A stretch of 32,000 bases of DNA from NCBI GenBank assembly GCA_963704435.1, contig OY969902.1, forward strand, positions 510,001 to 542,000, in the 5' to 3' direction. The notes beneath the pieces are model-generated. The model saw only the letters and a program-made list of their open reading frames with translations, did not search any database and was not told the origin of the DNA. The translations under genes were made by a program, and so were the position numbers. The stretch comes from an uncultured archaeon. Its GTDB lineage: Archaea; Micrarchaeota; Micrarchaeia; Micrarchaeales; CABMGC01. Positions 1 to 29,423 of the stretch are shown piece by piece. The number at the start of each line of letters is the position of its first letter. Within the stretch, counting starts at the first letter, position 1.

Positions 1-8
1 ATAAAGTT

Positions 9-108
9 GGGCTCCTAGCGTAACGGTAGCGCGCCTGCATGGCATGCAGGAGGTTGCGGGTTCGAATGGGTCCGGTCCGCCGGGTCCACGAAAATCCCGC
101 GGAGTCCA
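9..108 (+). tRNA. tRNA-Ala (anticodon GGC) with a 28-nt intron (67..94) in the T-loop, tRNA position 59/60
   Basis: Hand-folded cloverleaf. Acceptor GGGCTCC (9-15) pairs with GGAGTCC (101-107), including the G3:U70 Ala identity pair; A73 at 108. D stem GCGT/GCGC. Anticodon stem CCTGC/GCAGG with loop ATGGCAT (GGC at 41-43). T stem GCGGG (56-60)/CCCGC (96-100). The T-loop TTCGAA+T is restored only after removing 67-94. No encoded CCA. Confidence 0.8.
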
Positions 109-119
109 TCTTTTCGTTT
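109..119 (+). terminator. T-rich tract (tcttttcgttt) directly after tRNA-Ala; possible archaeal oligo-T terminator
   Basis: Pyrimidine/T run begins 1 nt after the discriminator base. Archaeal termination commonly uses oligo-T. Confidence 0.3.
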
Positions 120-849: not shown

Positions 850-1344
850 ATGCATTCCGAGGAGCGCATAATAATAAGGTCCATCGCCAAGCCTACTGCG
901 GACAGCGTGGAGGAGCTGACTTTCTGGTTCTGCAGGGCGTTCGACCTCGCCTCAGGCGGCGAGGCCCTCGAGCCCAGCCTGTTCAAGGAGATCGTGAGCG
1001 CCAGCGTGGAGGGCACCGGCGTCACGAGCAAGGAGCTCAATGACCGGCTCGCCGTGCCGCGGACCACAGTCATCTACCACCTCAACAGGTTCATAGGCTC
1101 CGGGCTCGTTGTCCGGAAAGGTCGGAAGTACTTCCTGCGCTCCGAGGACATGGAGAGCACGATAGAGGAGCTCCAGGCTGACATGACCCGCGAGTTCAGC
1201 CGCATGCTCGCTTTCGCTGAGAAATTTGACGAGATACTGGCAGGCGATGCCGCCGCCATCGGAAGGAGGAGAATAAATGCCGAAAGACAAAGAACCGAAG
1301 GAAAACGGAGAGTCGAAGCAAACAGCAACCGGAGAAAGCGCTGA
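850..1344 (+). CDS. Winged-HTH transcription regulator, candidate regulator of the adjacent heat-shock operon
   Basis: VTSKELNDRLAVPRTTVIYHLNRFIGSGLVVRKGRKYF shows an HTH-plus-wing pattern. It lies directly upstream of, and co-oriented with, grpE. The basic C-terminal tail overlaps the grpE start by 68 nt. Confidence 0.55.
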   Translation: MHSEERIIIRSIAKPTADSVEELTFWFCRAFDLASGGEALEPSLFKEIVSASVEGTGVTSKELNDRLAVPRTTVIYHLNRFIGSGLVVRKGRKYFLRSEDMESTIEELQADMTREFSRMLAFAEKFDEILAGDAAAIGRRRINAERQRTEGKRRVEANSNRRKR

Positions 1345-1786
1345 ATCCCCCCAGGTGGCGGAGCTGAAGGACAGGCTGCTGAGGCTCGCCGCCGAGTTCG
1401 ACAACTACAAGAAGCGCGTCGCCAGGGACATCGACTCAGCGAAGACGCTGGGGAAGGCGGAGCTCATGCGGGGCATGGTGCCGGTGCTGGACGAGTTCGA
1501 GCTCGCGATAAACGCGAAGGGCCTCGACGACGAGTCCGCCAGGGGCATCGAGCTCGTATATTCCAACCTCATGGAATCCCTGAAACGGGAGGGCCTTAGG
1601 ACCGTCGAGGTGGACGGGAAGTTCGACCCGTTCAGGCACGAGATCGTGCTGACTCGGGAAAGTAACGAGGAAGACGGCGTGATCATCGGAGTGGTGCGGA
1701 AGGGCTACGCGCTTGGCGACCTGCTGATAAGGCCAGCGTCTGTTATCGTTTCAAAGAAGTTTATAGAGAAAGGTGAATCAAAATGA
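1277..1786 (+). CDS. grpE: GrpE nucleotide exchange factor
   Basis: LAAEFDNYKKRV, FDPFRHEIV and RKGYALGDLLIRPASVIV are typical GrpE blocks. GGAGGAG lies 7-8 nt upstream of the ATG at 1277. The last ~11 codons are AT-rich. Confidence 0.85.
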   Translation: MPKDKEPKENGESKQTATGESAESPQVAELKDRLLRLAAEFDNYKKRVARDIDSAKTLGKAELMRGMVPVLDEFELAINAKGLDDESARGIELVYSNLMESLKREGLRTVEVDGKFDPFRHEIVLTRESNEEDGVIIGVVRKGYALGDLLIRPASVIVSKKFIEKGESK

Positions 1787-2755
1787 ATAATTCAGATTTC
1801 GCACAATCAATGCAGGAAATTTCAAAAATCAGAGAATATGGCAATTTCCAAACCATAAAAAATAGAATTGGCGAAACGAAATTAAAGAATTCGTTGCTTA
1901 CTCTTTATCCAAAGTATACGATAAAGGAGATAGAATCAATTACGGGTATTGCGGATTCCACTTTAGCGAGATGGTTTAAATATTTCGGCATATTCCCAGA
2001 AATGCGATGGCACATAAAAATCATATCAAAAGCAGGCACTAAAACCAGCGAACGTCTGCTGAGAAAAGGAAATACTTTCACAAAAAGGCTCACTGTGCAA
2101 ATTACTCCCGACTTGGCCTATTTAATTGGATTCGCCTTAGGTGATGGGGCGATACAAACTTACATGGTAGAGGTTTTCAACAAAAATGAAGGATTTTATC
2201 AGTATCTAAGTCAAATTATGAAAACGTATGGCTCAGTGACTGAAGATAGAAGACCAAATGGCTTGTGGCGACTGAGATTATCTAGTGTCATGATAGCAAA
2301 TCTGATAAAGAAGAATAAAGAAATTGATAAAGAAACAATTGATTTTATTTTTAAAAATAAGAAATTAACAAGAAAGTTTATCGCTGCATTTTGGGATGCT
2401 GAGGGGACTGTTCGGAGGCAAAATAAATATTATCACATCTATTTGTATAATACAAACAAATATCTTTTAGATAAAGTTTGCGAATTCCTTCAAGCTAAAA
2501 AAATAGAGTATTCAATTCATTCTAGAGACGACACAAAACGCAGTTATAAGTTAAAAGGTCGGCCAATAAGGGCTACTAAAATACTGCACAGGATTTCGAT
2601 ACCAAAATCATCCGCATTAATTTGGGCCAAAGAAATTGGCATACATATGCTGCATTCAAAAAAGAATTATTTTGTAAAAGAACTAATACTATCTAAAGGT
2701 GGTAAATATGAGTAAGATAATCGGCGTGGATTTAGGCACCAGTAATTCAGCAGCC
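1741..2755 (+). mobile_element. AT-rich inserted block carrying a free-standing LAGLIDADG homing endonuclease gene (approximate compositional boundaries)
   Basis: Hand counts: 15/60 G+C in 2281-2340 versus 43/60 in 2821-2880. Composition switches at about 1741 (inside the grpE 3' end) and about 2755 (inside the dnaK 5' end). Confidence 0.7.
1783..2715 (+). CDS. Double-motif LAGLIDADG homing endonuclease with an N-terminal HTH-like domain
   Basis: Motif 1 is [13 protein letters not shown] and motif 2 is [12 protein letters not shown]; both keep the acidic residue before the final G. N-terminal [26 protein letters not shown] looks HTH-like. The ATG overlaps the grpE TGA (ATGA). AGGTGA lies 7 nt upstream. 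The stop TAA (2713-2715) overlaps the dnaK start. Confidence 0.85.
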
Positions 2756-4543
2756 GCGGTTCTTGAGGGCGGAAGGCCCGTTCTGGTACCGAGCGCTGAA
2801 GGGACATCTCTCTACGGCAAGGCGTTCCCGAGCTACGTGGCGTTCACGAAGGACGACCAGCGGCTCGTGGGCGAGCCCGCCAGGAGGCAGGCAATCGCGA
2901 ACACGGACGGCACGGTCTCGGCATTCAAGAGAAAGATGGGGACCGCATACAAGTACAAGGTAAGGGGCAAGGACTATACCCCACAAGAACTGTCCGCCAT
3001 ACTCCTCCAGAAGATAAAGAAGGACTCGGAGGCGTTCCTGGGGGAGGAAGTCAAGAAGGCAGTCATCACGGTCCCTGCATACTTCAACGACAACCAAAGG
3101 CAGGCGACGAAGGACGCCGGAGAAATCGCCGGGCTCGAGGTCGTGAGACTGGTCAACGAACCTACTGCGGCTTGCCTGGCGTACGGCCTGGATAAGACCA
3201 GCAAGGAGATGAAGATACTCGTATACGACTTCGGTGGGGGTACGCTCGACGTCACTGTCATGGAGTTCGGCGGTGGAGTGTTCGAGGTCAAGTCGACCAA
3301 TGGAGACACCCAGCTGGGTGGGACTGACATGGATAACGCGATAGTCAACTTCCTGGTGGGCGAGATAAAGTCCAAGCAGGGTATCGACATAACGAGCGAC
3401 AGGCAGGCGATGCAGAGGCTCCGCGAGGCCGCGGAACGCGCCAAGATAGAGCTGTCAACGGTGCTCACCACCGACATAAACCTGCCGTTCATCGCGGCCG
3501 GGAAGGACGGAAAGGCCGCTCACTTCACGTACTCCCTGACCAGGGCAAAGCTCGAGGATATCGTGCTGCCGATAGTTGAGAAGACCACGAAGCCGGTGGT
3601 GCAGGCGCTGAAGGACGCCAAACTGGAGCCGAAGGGTGTTGACAAGGTCATCCTCATAGGAGGCCCCACGAGGATGCCGATAGTGCAGAGGTACGTCGAG
3701 CAGCTGCTTGGCAAGAAGATAGAGAGGGGCGTTGACCCGATGGAAGCCGTCGCCTTCGGCGCTGCCGTTCAGGCAGGAGTCCTCACTGGGGAGGTGAAGG
3801 ACATCGTGCTCCTTGACGTGACCCCGCTGTCGCTTGGGATAGAGACGCTTGGCGGCGTGTTCACGAAGGTCATCGACAGGAACACCACCATCCCGATCAA
3901 GAAGAGCAACGTCTTCTCGACTGCGGACGACAGCCAGTCCGCCGTTGACATATTCGTCTTCCAGGGGGAGCGTCCCATGGCGCGCGACAACATACTGCTG
4001 GGCAACTTCAAGCTCGACGGGATAGCGCCCGCTCCCAGGGGCGTGCCGCAGATAGAGGTGGCGTTCGACATAGACGCGAACGGGATACTCCACGTGAACG
4101 CGAAGGACAAGGCCACCGGGAAGGAGCAGAGCATCAAGATCGTCGCACCGAACAAGATGGCGAAGGATGACATAGGCAAGAAGATGAAGGAGGCCGAGGA
4201 GTACGCATCGCAGGACAGGGAGACTCTCGAACGCGTCCAGACCGTCAACGACGCTGAGTCGATGGTCTACACCACGGACAAGACCCTTAAGGAGTTCGGT
4301 GACAAGGTACCCAAGGACGTCTCTGAGAAGGTGGAGGGCGCGAGGGACGAGCTCAAGGAGGCGCTGAAGAGCGACAAGTATGAGGACGTGAAGGCGAAGC
4401 TCCAGAGGCTCAGGGACGTGCTGCAGGAGATAGGGTCAAGCGTCTACGGGAAGCCGGGAGACCAGGGCAGCCCCTACGGTGGAGGCCCAGAAGCCGGGCC
4501 TGACCCGACCGAAGGAGGAGCCGATTCCGGCGTGGATAAGTAG
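2708..4543 (+). CDS. dnaK: Hsp70 chaperone DnaK
   Basis: [34 protein letters not shown] and a full-length Hsp70 pattern. The ATG at 2708 is preceded by AGGTGG. The track start at 2699 is an upstream alternative codon. Confidence 0.97.
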
Positions 4544-4554
4544 CGTGGATCCCC

Positions 4555-5277
4555 ATGTCAGACTACTATGAAGTTCTAGGCGTAGGAAGGAACGCCACGC
4601 AGGACGAGATAAAGCGGGCGTACCGCGAACTTGCTCTGCGCTACCACCCGGACAAGAACAAGTCCAAAGAAGCCGAGGAGCGGTTCAAAAAGGCTAACGA
4701 GGCCTACGCGGTGCTGGGGGACCCGGAGAAGAGGAGGCAGTACGACGTCCTCGGCTCGGATCGGTTCGGTCAGCAGTTCTCCCCTGATGACATATTTCGC
4801 GGATTTGACCCGAACGACATCCTCCGGGACATAATGCAGGGAGCCTTCTCATCGTTCGGCGGCGGGGGCGGCCCTTTCCAGGACATGTTTTCCCAGATGA
4901 ACCAGGGGGTCAATCTCTCACTGTCCTTGAAGGACATGGAGAACGGGCTCGACAGGGAGTTCGAGGTCAATCTCCAAAAGATCTGCGGGAACTGCAGGGG
5001 CACCGGCGGCGAGCCGGGGTCGAAGCAGATAAAGTGCCCCGCATGCAACGGTGCTGGCAGCGTCCGCGTGAACCAGCGAACGCCTTTTGGGACGATACAG
5101 GCCATAACCACGTGCAGCCGCTGCGGAGGCAGGGGAAAGACCTATGAGAAAATCTGCAGGACTTGCTCAGGGCGCGGACAGGTGCTCGTAAAGGAAAGGT
5201 TCAGGATTAAAGTGGAGAATACTTCGGACGGCGCCGGCGGGGACAAGAAACAGAGGGGCAGGTTCGGCATATTCTAG
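4555..5277 (+). CDS. dnaJ: DnaJ-type co-chaperone, short form (240 aa): J domain, G/F region and zinc-finger domain, lacking the distal C-terminal domain
   Basis: DYYEVLGV...YHPDKN (HPD), a GGGGGPF G/F region, and four CxxCxGxG repeats ([32 protein letters not shown]). It ends about 32 aa after the last repeat. Confidence 0.85.
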
Positions 5278-6442: not shown

Positions 6443-8113
6443 CTAATGGGCAGTCACGTTTGCGGGAACCATGCCCGCGTCGGTTATGACGGTTATCCGG
6501 TATGTGGTCCCGTTCGTGAGCTCGGGGACGGCAAACGGTTCGGCCGGCCCGAGGCTGCCGCTGAAGGAAAGCGTGACCGAGGATCCCGGAGACAGCTCAT
6601 ATCCCGGTTCCGCGGGCGGCTGCGACTGCTTGAACGGCTGCGCGGAGGGCGCCACTGATACCGGACCGAATCCGCCGGGGCCGAAAGGCAGGGACAGCGT
6701 GCCGTTCTTATTCACTATAAAGACCGCCCCGGTAGGGTTCTGGAATCCGAACCCAGCCGTGCCGCCTGTGAAGAAGGGCTGGCTTGCGTTTTCCCCTAGG
6801 CCGACTATCCGTATCCTGCTGACCGGGCTGTGCATCCTTATCTCAACTGAATTGGCTCCGTCACGGTGGGATATCGAATAGATATCGCGCGCATCTATGG
6901 TAAAAGTCGAATTCTGGGCCTGGGAGGAATTCTGGGCCTGGGAGGAATTCTGGGCCTGGGAGGAATTCTGGGCCTGGGAGGAATTCTGGGCCTGGGAGGA
7001 ATTCTGGGCCTGGGAGGAATTCTGGGCCTGGGATGAGTTAAACTCCCTGCCCGCCCACGAGGTCCCGAAATGCGAGTCGTTAATGACATCCATGCCAAAG
7101 TTCGCGGGTTTCGCCCCGTAACCGTCCAGCGAAATGCCGATCACAGTCACATTGCGGTCTCCGGTGTTCTTCAGCGATATGTTGAAAGTGGTGGTATTCC
7201 CGTGGACTCCCAGAGCAACATTGGAGACCGTGACGTTCGGACCCGCACTTGGAAACGCTTTCTGATACGGCTGCTTCAAAGGCCAAAATGCCCCTTCTGG
7301 AGGGACGCCACTGCTCGGAGTGCGGTTGTACATGTCCGGCTGTGAGATCACCGACGCCCTTAGTGTCGGGAAGAGCACGAATTGCGTCGCGTTGTCTGAG
7401 TACACTTCAGTCACGACCGGAGAGAAATCCAGCAATATGCCTGACGAGGCATTGACGCCTTTCGCCTCTTCGACATCGGCGGTTATCCGCTTCTGGGCGA
7501 GCTGCACGCCATAGGTTACGTTATCGATGATTATGCTTGCTGCAGTCACGTTGAACCTGACCTCGGACACGTTCGAGCCGATCTTCATCTGGGCTCCGCC
7601 CATCACCTGGCTCGTGTTTATCAGGTCCATCAGGTTTAGCCTGCCGGTCGAGTTCACCGGGACCCATTCCGAACTATTTCCGTAGCCCACATGCACACTG
7701 AGGGAAGAGTAGTTTATGTATAGCGCCTGCGTCCCGGACGGCACCTGGGGTGGATCTGTTATGCTTACCGGGACATAGGTCGAATTCGGGCCCTGGGAAT
7801 ACAGGTATGCCGAAAAGACCGCCGCAGCCAATAGCGCAAATGCGATGAGCGTGACGATTATCCTGCCGCTTGGCACCATTCCTTCGGAGCGCTGCTCTGA
7901 CACAGTCACGCCAGGATTTATCCTGTAGTATTTCCACTTCTTAACGTGCTCGTTCTCCTCCTGCTCTATGCTGCCCGAGGTTTCGAGATCGTGGAGGTGC
8001 TTGCTTACGGTCGACGGTGCCAAATTAAGCGTCTCGCTGATCTTGCTAGGGTTGTTCTTACCTTCTGAAATCAGCTTGAGGATCTTCCCCTTTGTGTCCC
8101 CCTGTTTTGCCAT
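6443..8113 (-). CDS. Membrane-anchored winged-HTH (ArsR-like) protein with a large extracytoplasmic domain (DUF4382-like beta-rich region plus CARDB-like segment)
   Basis: N-terminal ILKLISEGKNNPSKISETLNLAPSTVSKHLHDLETSG...KWKYYRI (wHTH). Single TM segment IIVTLIAFALLAAAVFSAYLY. About 450 aa beyond it carry many N-x-S/T sequons. The ATG at 8113 lies about 27 nt downstream of a TATA box; the track start at 8134 is a TTG. Confidence 0.7.
   Translation of the reverse strand: MAKQGDTKGKILKLISEGKNNPSKISETLNLAPSTVSKHLHDLETSGSIEQEENEHVKKWKYYRINPGVTVSEQRSEGMVPSGRIIVTLIAFALLAAAVFSAYLYSQGPNSTYVPVSITDPPQVPSGTQALYINYSSLSVHVGYGNSSEWVPVNSTGRLNLMDLINTSQVMGGAQMKIGSNVSEVRFNVTAASIIIDNVTYGVQLAQKRITADVEEAKGVNASSGILLDFSPVVTEVYSDNATQFVLFPTLRASVISQPDMYNRTPSSGVPPEGAFWPLKQPYQKAFPSAGPNVTVSNVALGVHGNTTTFNISLKNTGDRNVTVIGISLDGYGAKPANFGMDVINDSHFGTSWAGREFNSSQAQNSSQAQNSSQAQNSSQAQNSSQAQNSSQAQNSSQAQNSTFTIDARDIYSISHRDGANSVEIRMHSPVSRIRIVGLGENASQPFFTGGTAGFGFQNPTGAVFIVNKNGTLSLPFGPGGFGPVSVAPSAQPFKQSQPPAEPGYELSPGSSVTLSFSGSLGPAEPFAVPELTNGTTYRITVITDAGMVPANVTAH
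6909..7034. repeat. Tandem repeat, 7 x 18 bp (gaattctgggcctgggag): six perfect copies and one with a single mismatch
   Basis: Counted unit by unit: 6909-6926, 6927-6944, ... 7017-7034; the last base of unit 7 is t. It is in frame on the minus strand and encodes (NSSQAQ)x7 inside the ectodomain of the 6443..8113 protein. Every unit contains GAATTC. Confidence 0.95.
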
Positions 8114-8132
8114 GAGATGATTATGCCGCCGC

Positions 8133-8271
8133 AATATATATAATTATGCGATATATTTCGCTTTTCGTTTCGCTTTTCAACAAGCAGCGAAAACGAAGCT
8201 CCGGCCATAAAGATTTCCCACGTAAACAAAAGCGAAGTTAAAGCGAAGTGATGAAAAAGCCTTATATATTT
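8133..8271. promoter_or_regulatory. Divergent, mirror-symmetric promoter pair with repeated AAAGCGAA elements
   Basis: Minus side: GAAAAGCGAAA x2 (8178-8168 and 8166-8156), then 12 nt, then TTATATATATT (8143-8133), then the ATG at 8113. Plus side: AAAGCGAAGT x2 (8229-8238 and 8240-8249), then 12 nt, then TTATATATTT (8262-8271), then the ATG at 8291. A partial fifth copy, AGCGAAAA, lies at 8186-8193. Confidence 0.55.
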
Positions 8272-29324: not shown

Positions 29325-29423
29325 TGCGGGGGATGGGATTTGAACCCATGCAGGTTCTAAACCACAGGAGTTCTGAATGGGTTCCTCAGTCCTGCGCATT
29401 TGGCCAAGCTCTGCCACCCCCGC
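29325..29423 (-). tRNA. tRNA-Leu (anticodon GAG), class II, with a 13-nt intron (29371..29383) at the canonical 37/38 position
   Basis: Minus-strand fold: GCGGGGG/CCCCCGC acceptor, A73. D arm GCA-GAGCTTGGCCAAA-TGC. Anticodon stem CAGGA/TCCTG with loop CTGAGG|intron|C. Long variable arm TGGTTTAGAACCTGC. T arm ATGGG-TTCAAAT-CCCAT. Confidence 0.85.

Follow-up and report, generated by a model that had tools for sequence, protein, structure and literature searches.

The question raised by the DNA analysed here, a 32,000-nucleotide stretch of contig OY969902.1 (hereafter the window), is what a gene with two LAGLIDADG motifs is doing between grpE and dnaK in an archaeal heat-shock operon. The host is a Micrarchaeota (DPANN) metagenome-assembled genome, and the same locus is present in two assemblies. 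Our analysis indicates that this gene is probably one half of a site-specific selfish element, present in one copy in the window, in which a single-chain LAGLIDADG homing endonuclease travels together with a cassette replacing the 5' end of dnaK. The first part of the element would be the nuclease gene with its N-terminal MerR-like helix-turn-helix (HTH), and the second a short stretch that supplies dnaK with a ribosome site, an ATG and codons 1-9. Its home site would be the 5' end of dnaK, in the DNA for the conserved ATPase loop ..IIGIDLGTSNS.., with the break falling between IIGIDL and GTSNS.

The 310-residue product of the open reading frame (ORF) matches Pfam LAGLIDADG_3 in two stretches (E 7e-15) and, weakly, LAGLIDADG_WhiA, and each of its two motifs ends in a metal-binding residue, D121 being invariant and E207 kept in at least 90% of the sequences in a 96-member family alignment. 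The AF2 model (pLDDT 90, pTM 0.82) adopts the tandem alpha-beta-beta-alpha-beta-beta-alpha fold, and its top PDB matches in Foldseek are PI-PfuI, I-DmoI and I-Tsp061I (E about 1e-8; TM-score 0.6-0.7, normalised to I-DmoI), with PI-SceI also among the top ones and WhiA (3hyi) and maturases ranking lower. A first-pass annotation of this DNA, made from the letters alone, had described an intact ORF with both LAGLIDADG motifs and an HTH-like N-terminus; the former is borne out by these matches with D121 and E207 in place, and the latter finds support at the family level, Pfam MerR_1 being matched, weakly, by 46 of the 96 members (best E 1.7e-4). Residues 1-76 are helical in the model, with helices at 47-54 and 58-67; the alignment of CarH/MerR to this N-terminal segment is weak, and a PDB sequence search with the whole protein returned only insignificant MerR-type matches. 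The gene is intact and under purifying selection, as dN/dS is 0.09 (dS 1.18) between the window nuclease and the 79%-identical copy at locus L086, a constraint comparable to that on grpE and dnaK, whose values for the same pair are 0.17 and 0.04. No Hint or intein-splicing Pfam domain was found in the ORF and no Rfam intron family (group I, group II or archaeal intron) in the window; the endonuclease gene is therefore free-standing, neither an intein nor housed in an intron, in agreement with the first-pass annotation. Public records name proteins of this family only as 'LAGLIDADG family homing endonuclease' or 'hypothetical'. The nuclease gene and its protein features are:

1783..2715, + strand: free-standing single-chain LAGLIDADG homing endonuclease gene, 310 aa, Pfam LAGLIDADG_3
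1915..1989, + strand: N-terminal helix-turn-helix, MerR-like, aa 45-69, presumed extra DNA-binding module
2113..2151, + strand: LAGLIDADG motif 1, aa 111-123, LGDG, catalytic Asp121
2377..2412, + strand: LAGLIDADG motif 2, aa 199-210, DAEG, catalytic Glu207

The site of entry is best read from seven family members, falling in at least four parts of the family tree, which start with DnaK's own N-terminus (M-x-K-I-I-G-I-D-L type; MSKIIGIDL, MAKVIGIDL, MEKISGIDL, MNKIIGID, MGKIIGINL, MTKMTGIN and MSKIHCVD). Each of these loci holds two copies of the dnaK 5' end at the DNA level. The copy lying upstream runs in frame into the nuclease and has the empty-site codons GGA AT[ACT] GAT TTG, its Gly6 codon being GGA in six of the seven. 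The downstream copy starts the working dnaK and reads GGC, GGT or GGG at Gly6 in all seven, often with GTG, GAC or CTC besides. All seven pairs of leader and replacement break right after codon 9, and over all loci the base differences that set insert-bearing alleles apart from empty ones are concentrated at -10, -9 and +3 relative to that break. The alignment of junctions among relatives, proposed with the first-pass annotation as a check, thus retrieves insertion-free alleles and places the insertion point after dnaK codon 9. In the window the rebuilt dnaK start (Shine-Dalgarno sequence, ATG and nine codons) spans 2698..2734, so that we infer an insertion point between 2734 and 2735. The gene had earlier been described as inserted between grpE and dnaK; it does stand free at that position in the window, but the element appears to have entered dnaK itself after codon 9, replacing codons 1-9.

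On the left side, window GAAAGGTGAATCAAAATG is homologous to AAAAGGTGAATGAATATG of empty sites, AAGGTGA (1770-1776) aligns with AAAGGTGAATGAATATG of empty junctions, and ATG 1783 with their dnaK ATG. It follows that the grpE tail, AAGGTGA and ATG 1783 are native host sequence now used by the nuclease; the AGGTGA noted earlier inside the 3' end of grpE is indeed there, but as part of the host and not of the element. The in-frame fusion with an element-borne duplicate end is found at the seven leader-bearing loci, the leader being only vestigial in the window, where 1783-1800 may tentatively be taken for a remnant of the resident dnaK leader. The junction features are:

1770-1776, + strand: AAGGTGA Shine-Dalgarno sequence, now serving the endonuclease ATG at 1783
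1783..1800, + strand: possible shortened, decayed dnaK leader remnant, M-N-N-S-D-F, TCA GAT TTC versus ATA GAT TTA
2698..2702, + strand: GGTGG Shine-Dalgarno sequence for dnaK, written in the endonuclease C-terminal Gly-Gly codons
2708..2734, + strand: putative element-borne replacement of dnaK codons 1-9, ATG AGT AAG ATA ATC GGC GTG GAT TTA
2723-2728: recoded codons GGC GTG in the replacement dnaK start
AAAATAATAGGAATAGATTTAGGAACATCAAA: empty-site dnaK 5' end, predicted target context
GGTGAATGAATATGGCAAAAATAATAGGAATAGATTTAGGAACATCAAATAGCGC: empty-site junction, for example L026 or L011
AAATATGAGTAAGATAATCGGCGTGGATTTAGGCACCAGTAATTC: the window's own right junction

The recoding can be followed across alleles. 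In the window's subclade GTG is present in all 11 loci (at least 57% nuclease identity, readable dnaK start) except L089, and the more general signal of insert-bearing alleles is the change of GGA to GGB at Gly6 with the differences at -10, -9 and +3. Empty Micrarchaeota alleles read GGA, GGC or GGG followed by ATH in 33 of 34 cases. The exception, L023, is the insert-free sister of the insert-bearing L020 (DnaK 88% identical); since it keeps GGC GTG and its outgroups L008 and L010 have GGA ATA, it looks like a case of nuclease loss that left the recoded allele behind. An 'M-x-SEK' match between L023 DnaK and the N-terminus of the L020 nuclease was dismissed as chance, the Ser codons being different (AGC and TCT).

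The gene is distributed patchily, as expected of a mobile element. A GrpE-based scan with one genome per species gave 35 closely related Micrarchaeota loci (L006-L040), in 33 of which the grpE-dnaK junction is empty and measures -4 to 176 bp. The two others are L020, with a full nuclease copy of 59% identity, and L006, the closest relative and sister species of the window organism (GrpE 78%, DnaK 80%), whose nuclease has suffered an internal deletion of ~373 bp, with loss of the second motif, and a change of its start from ATG to GTG, its dnaK being intact. This decayed copy and the likely loss at L023 are what a cycle of invasion, decay and loss leaves behind. Protein searches retrieved about 100 relatives with 40-79% identity, many labelled Woesearchaeota, Nanoarchaeota or Diapherotrites. 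Among the 46 contigs long enough to read (host GC 0.26-0.58, GrpE identity 27-78%) dnaK lies directly downstream of the nuclease in 45, its ATG -9 to +11 nt from the nuclease stop; the same insertion site is thus occupied across hosts and empty in relatives. Where an insert is present and the junction can be read, the 22 nt ahead of the dnaK ATG mostly contain a GGAGG/GGTGA-type site, and the majority of the family's proteins have ..GG.. at their end. In operons of the Woesearchaeota type, genes that are YkgJ-like or encode DUF3467 stand between grpE and the nuclease, dnaK still adjoining the latter, and at L110, L111 and L184, where other genes follow grpE, the element likewise remains next to dnaK. 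What the element keeps to is thus the 5' end of dnaK, independently of grpE. Of the two places proposed for the target in the first-pass annotation, the dnaK 5' end and the grpE 3' end, the former is supported by independent evidence in the duplicated dnaK leaders.

The same junction accommodates other genes in these archaea. YkgJ-like Cys-rich and/or DUF3467 genes were located at L080:2794-4320, L110:1-595, L111:2440-2976 and L184:1461-1796, and in Woesearchaeota-type Hsp70 operons such genes either separate grpE from dnaK or precede grpE. In the Anstonellaceae loci L047 and L074 the grpE-dnaK position is taken by another small ORF, conserved and about 120 aa long. The junction insertions of L080 (1.5 kb) and of L047 and L074 (0.35-0.43 kb) had been considered as further candidates and were rejected, as they consist of unrelated small genes and hold no endonucleases. 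Sister families at about 30% identity (P0109-P0117; L188) align over their full length with the nuclease family, N-terminal domain included, and could represent endonucleases built alike but directed against other genes. In L003, L005 and L002, contigs from the window's own sample series, dnaK is split into 2-3 gene calls, which may reflect frameshifts of sequencing or assembly or else true pseudogenes.

On the preferred reading, a selfish element homing into the dnaK 5' end, the events can be reconstructed as follows. The nuclease would recognise the DNA for ..IIGIDLGTSNS.. and cut an empty allele near GGA ATA GAT TTR^GGA ACN, and repair off the element-bearing allele would then place the element behind codon 9. 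The nuclease would thereby come to be translated from host signals, the ribosome site, ATG and first nine codons of the resident dnaK serving as its leader, and dnaK would be rebuilt from the codons 1-9 brought in by the element, with a ribosome site in the Gly-Gly codons of the nuclease and an overlap of stop and start. The copy of these codons borne by the element is recoded, everywhere from GGA to GGB and, within the clade of the window, also from ATA to GTG (Ile7Val). Such recoding would block re-cutting of the carrier locus, whose right junction would be a target again without it, and it would also make the two 27-bp repeats less prone to recombine. The window's leader would since have been trimmed, the nuclease ATG at 1783 corresponding to the old dnaK ATG and overlapping the grpE stop. 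Fold, catalytic residues, purifying selection, site specificity, empty sites, the decayed copy, duplication and recoding are direct observations; cleavage, homing, self-immunity and the exact target, which is predicted from the insertion footprints, are what these suggest at the level of sequence.

Base composition had been central to the first-pass annotation, and here part of its argument held and part did not. A likelihood fit with two change points delimits a low-GC block at 1739..2721 (support 1725-1753 and 2715-2752), matching the AT-rich extent of 1741..2755 proposed in that annotation, with a GC content of 0.33 inside and 0.60 outside, and the hand counts of 15/60 and 43/60 G+C proved exact. 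GC at third codon positions (GC3) is 0.32 in the ORF as compared with 0.82 in grpE and 0.81 in dnaK. The spill of AT-rich codons into the grpE tail and the dnaK start was, in turn, read as a mark of co-conversion, and this we reject because it is not specific to insert-bearing loci. The tta/agt/aat/tca codons at the dnaK start are also used by relatives without the nuclease, and the first 45 nt of dnaK fall below the gene body in GC by 0.13 +/- 0.05 at empty-site relatives and by 0.17 in the window. The grpE tails of empty-site relatives are likewise K/E-rich and end in ..GGTGAA-stop, their drop in GC3 over the last 12 grpE codons averaging 0.22, with a maximum of 0.45. The codon-usage shift is large in the window, whose value of 0.57 for the grpE tail is the most extreme, but the difference between the groups is not significant (Mann-Whitney p = 0.18). 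Across all hosts the nuclease has a GC3 of 0.12-0.42, the same as that of its low-GC DPANN hosts but much lower than that of the high-GC Micrarchaeota; in the latter, the contrast argues for a foreign origin. The opposite outcome, the same ORF in all relatives with host-like composition, would have indicated an old domesticated gene; instead, 33 of the 35 junctions are empty and the GC3 of 0.32 stands against 0.82 in the neighbouring grpE.

A number of observations nevertheless weigh against a mobile element. The gene is still AT-rich after about 20% protein divergence in high-GC hosts (window versus L086), which a simple recent arrival does not predict. Pairwise identities of the nuclease and of DnaK are correlated (r = 0.66), near-identical nucleases in distant hosts and clear identity outliers were both lacking in this comparison, and the tree is explained just as well by vertical descent with many losses. 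The searches brought up no insert-free allele from the species of the window. At L095 the nuclease (123-1234), preceded by a GrpE C-terminus, is followed by a gene for a CDGSH iron-sulfur protein and not by dnaK, an arrangement that on this short contig might mean either an ectopic site or another order of the operon. The pair GGC GTG had to be given up as a universal signature, Val being present in only 17 of 36 insert-bearing alleles, and the match of the leader in the window itself is weak at the residue level. With these correlated identities and a saturated dS, recurrent horizontal homing and old vertical descent with frequent loss account for the data alike. Carriage by viruses was set aside, IMG/VR having only distant LAGLIDADG genes (30-33%).

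Taking the alternatives in decreasing order of probability, the gene might code for a domesticated LAGLIDADG/HTH protein, for example a WhiA-like regulator or partner of the Hsp70 operon, derived from an old insertion that was inherited vertically and often lost. The strong purifying selection (dN/dS 0.09), the divergence of the nuclease in step with that of DnaK, a translational coupling that is perfectly conserved, the dnaK ribosome site being encoded in the protein's C-terminus, the HTH domain, the viral contigs without copies and the presence of WhiA among the structural matches would all be in keeping with such a history. We nonetheless consider it unlikely: both catalytic acids, usually lost in WhiA-type proteins and maturases, are conserved across the 96 sequences, and only 2 of the 35 closest species have the gene, one of them, the sister species, with an internally deleted copy beside an intact dnaK. 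Moreover, the composition is far from that of the host in high-GC genomes, and the footprints of duplication and recoding are those of an invading element.

The broken copy in the sister species, the already trimmed leader in the window and the failure to detect either a same-species insert-free allele or a recent transfer event would also suit a fixed relic that is no longer mobile, the fossil of one old invasion, lately immobilised or intact by chance and heading for decay. This we judge improbable, since the ORF is full-length with all conserved residues present, and a dN/dS of 0.09 over a dS of about 1.2 in the lineage of the window and L086 denotes long-term selection on the protein, a value that a functionless gene would not show.

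A third possibility concerns the meaning of the neighbourhood itself, for which the organisation of the operon has to be considered. In the window the ORF list and Pfam give the order winged-HTH gene, grpE, 310-aa ORF, dnaK, dnaJ, and a homologue of the winged-HTH gene is found upstream of grpE in all Micrarchaeota loci. The features are:

821-828: TATA-like box TTTAAATA, near the winged-HTH gene
850..1344, + strand: winged-HTH gene, weak Pfam HTH_20/MarR_2 matches, first gene of the conserved HTH-grpE-dnaK-dnaJ operon
1277..1786, + strand: grpE, Pfam GrpE E 2.5e-33
about 1742-1786, + strand: grpE tail, K/E-rich and AT-rich, holding the ribosome site used by the next gene
2708..4543, + strand: dnaK, intact, 611 aa, Pfam HSP70 E 3e-219
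4555..5277, + strand: dnaJ, from the ORF list, DnaJ Pfam families found in L001

As stated in the first-pass annotation, the endonuclease gene is translationally coupled on both sides, its start overlapping the grpE stop as ATGA (1783-1786) and its TAA (2713-2715) falling within dnaK codons 2-3, downstream of the dnaK ATG at 2708. Co-transcription of the endonuclease with the heat-shock operon is plausible; beside it we note that the sole sense-strand T5 run of the operon (2348-2352) and two TATA-like boxes (1975 and 2350) lie within the endonuclease ORF. The link to Hsp70 might also be functional: homing could be switched on by stress because the nuclease is translated from dnaK initiation signals in a heat-shock operon, DnaK could be a needed partner as in Endo.SceI, or the drive of the element could have helped the bacterial-type grpE-dnaK-dnaJ operon to spread in DPANN archaea. 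We consider a functional role of any of these kinds very doubtful. Finally, an intein, an intron-encoded ORF or an assembly chimera, to which the sole NCBIfam match of the ORF (an intein-containing RpoA'' model) and the Pfam Hom_end domain, an intein-type endonuclease domain matched by 31 of the 96 family members, might point, is refuted by the ORF's own start and stop between complete grpE and dnaK in continuous flanking ORFs, by the lack of Hint, splicing and intron signatures described above and by the same arrangement in two independent assemblies of the organism and in more than 40 other contigs.

Our searches of the available library retrieved no literature linking LAGLIDADG genes with archaeal dnaK/grpE or describing such an arrangement. 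According to a recent review, a homing endonuclease gene that stands alone can in general invade only intergenic sites, unless an intron or intein carries it (PMC13619312). If it is indeed a homing element, the family at the dnaK 5' end would represent a third route past this limit in a cellular prokaryote, by replacing the end of a gene: it would invade an essential gene where that gene is most conserved and itself repair the damage with nine recoded codons and a C-terminal ribosome site. It would also be a natural example of target-site recoding as self-immunity, offer, for a new and compact meganuclease scaffold with an extra HTH, a predicted target open to direct testing, and serve as a marker of gene flow among the poorly understood, uncultivated DPANN archaea.

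Away from the Hsp70 operon, the window has three other features worth recording. A tRNA-Ala(GGC) at 8-110 (+ strand) is interrupted by 28 nt (68-95) inserted where the T-loop meets the 3' strand of the T-stem, not a canonical place for an intron; as it stands, this tRNA escapes both ARAGORN and Rfam, and ARAGORN calls a clean tRNA-Ala after removal of 68-95. A tRNA-Leu(GAG) at 29325-29423 (- strand) carries a 13-nt canonical intron and was found by Rfam and by the intron mode of ARAGORN, being missed by the default tRNA scan. At 6443-8134 (- strand) a 563-aa ORF combines an N-terminal HTH-like segment with seven perfect tandem NSSQAQ repeats and probably codes for a secreted or surface protein.

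Among characterised enzymes the closest in build are I-DmoI, I-Tsp061I and PI-PfuI, which like the window enzyme are archaeal and single-chain, with two motifs, Asp in the first and Glu in the second, a pairing that I-DmoI has in the same order. They differ in sitting in rRNA introns or inteins, the window gene being free-standing in a protein-coding operon, and the window enzyme, with only 16-19% identity to them, has an extra N-terminal HTH domain of ~105 residues. WhiA, a bacterial transcription factor, resembles it in combining a LAGLIDADG scaffold with an HTH. In WhiA the HTH is C-terminal, the catalytic acids are lost and the protein is, as far as known, universally conserved in its clade; here the HTH is N-terminal, the acids are kept and the gene is patchy, occurring in 2 of the 35 close species, features which do not fit a WhiA-like domesticated regulator. 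A LAGLIDADG protein is also associated with Hsp70 in yeast mitochondrial Endo.SceI, a physical heterodimer of the LAGLIDADG subunit Ens2 and mitochondrial Hsp70. In the window the link appears to be genomic only, with dnaK as the probable target site.

With regard to the mode of insertion, comparable gene-end-duplicating cases are known from organelles, such as Allomyces atp6 and Ophiostoma rps3. In-frame fusion of organellar nuclease ORFs to upstream host sequence, by which they borrow its expression signals, has been described as 'core creep' (PMC8393795), and mobility-generated N-terminal gene duplications in Tremella mitochondria are among the work cited there (PMC8393795). The window element shares with these the use of the host gene's expression signals through an in-frame fusion. 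The organellar cases are mitochondrial, mostly concern introns or 3' gene ends and operate in another translation context, whereas the element studied here lies in an archaeal chromosome, at a 5' end, and has a Shine-Dalgarno sequence in the C-terminus of the nuclease. The 'intronless homing' of the Seg and Mob enzymes of T4-like phages is similar in that a free-standing nuclease gene is wedged between conserved genes; these spread with their flanking DNA (PMC2988022, PMC2790892), and their carriers have to be protected through sequence differences at the target (PMC2988022, PMC2790892). They are GIY-YIG or HNH enzymes cutting hundreds to thousands of bp from their own gene (PMC2988022), whereas the window enzyme belongs to the LAGLIDADG class, would cut at the very point of its insertion and is found in a cellular archaeal host, with the end of the invaded gene duplicated.

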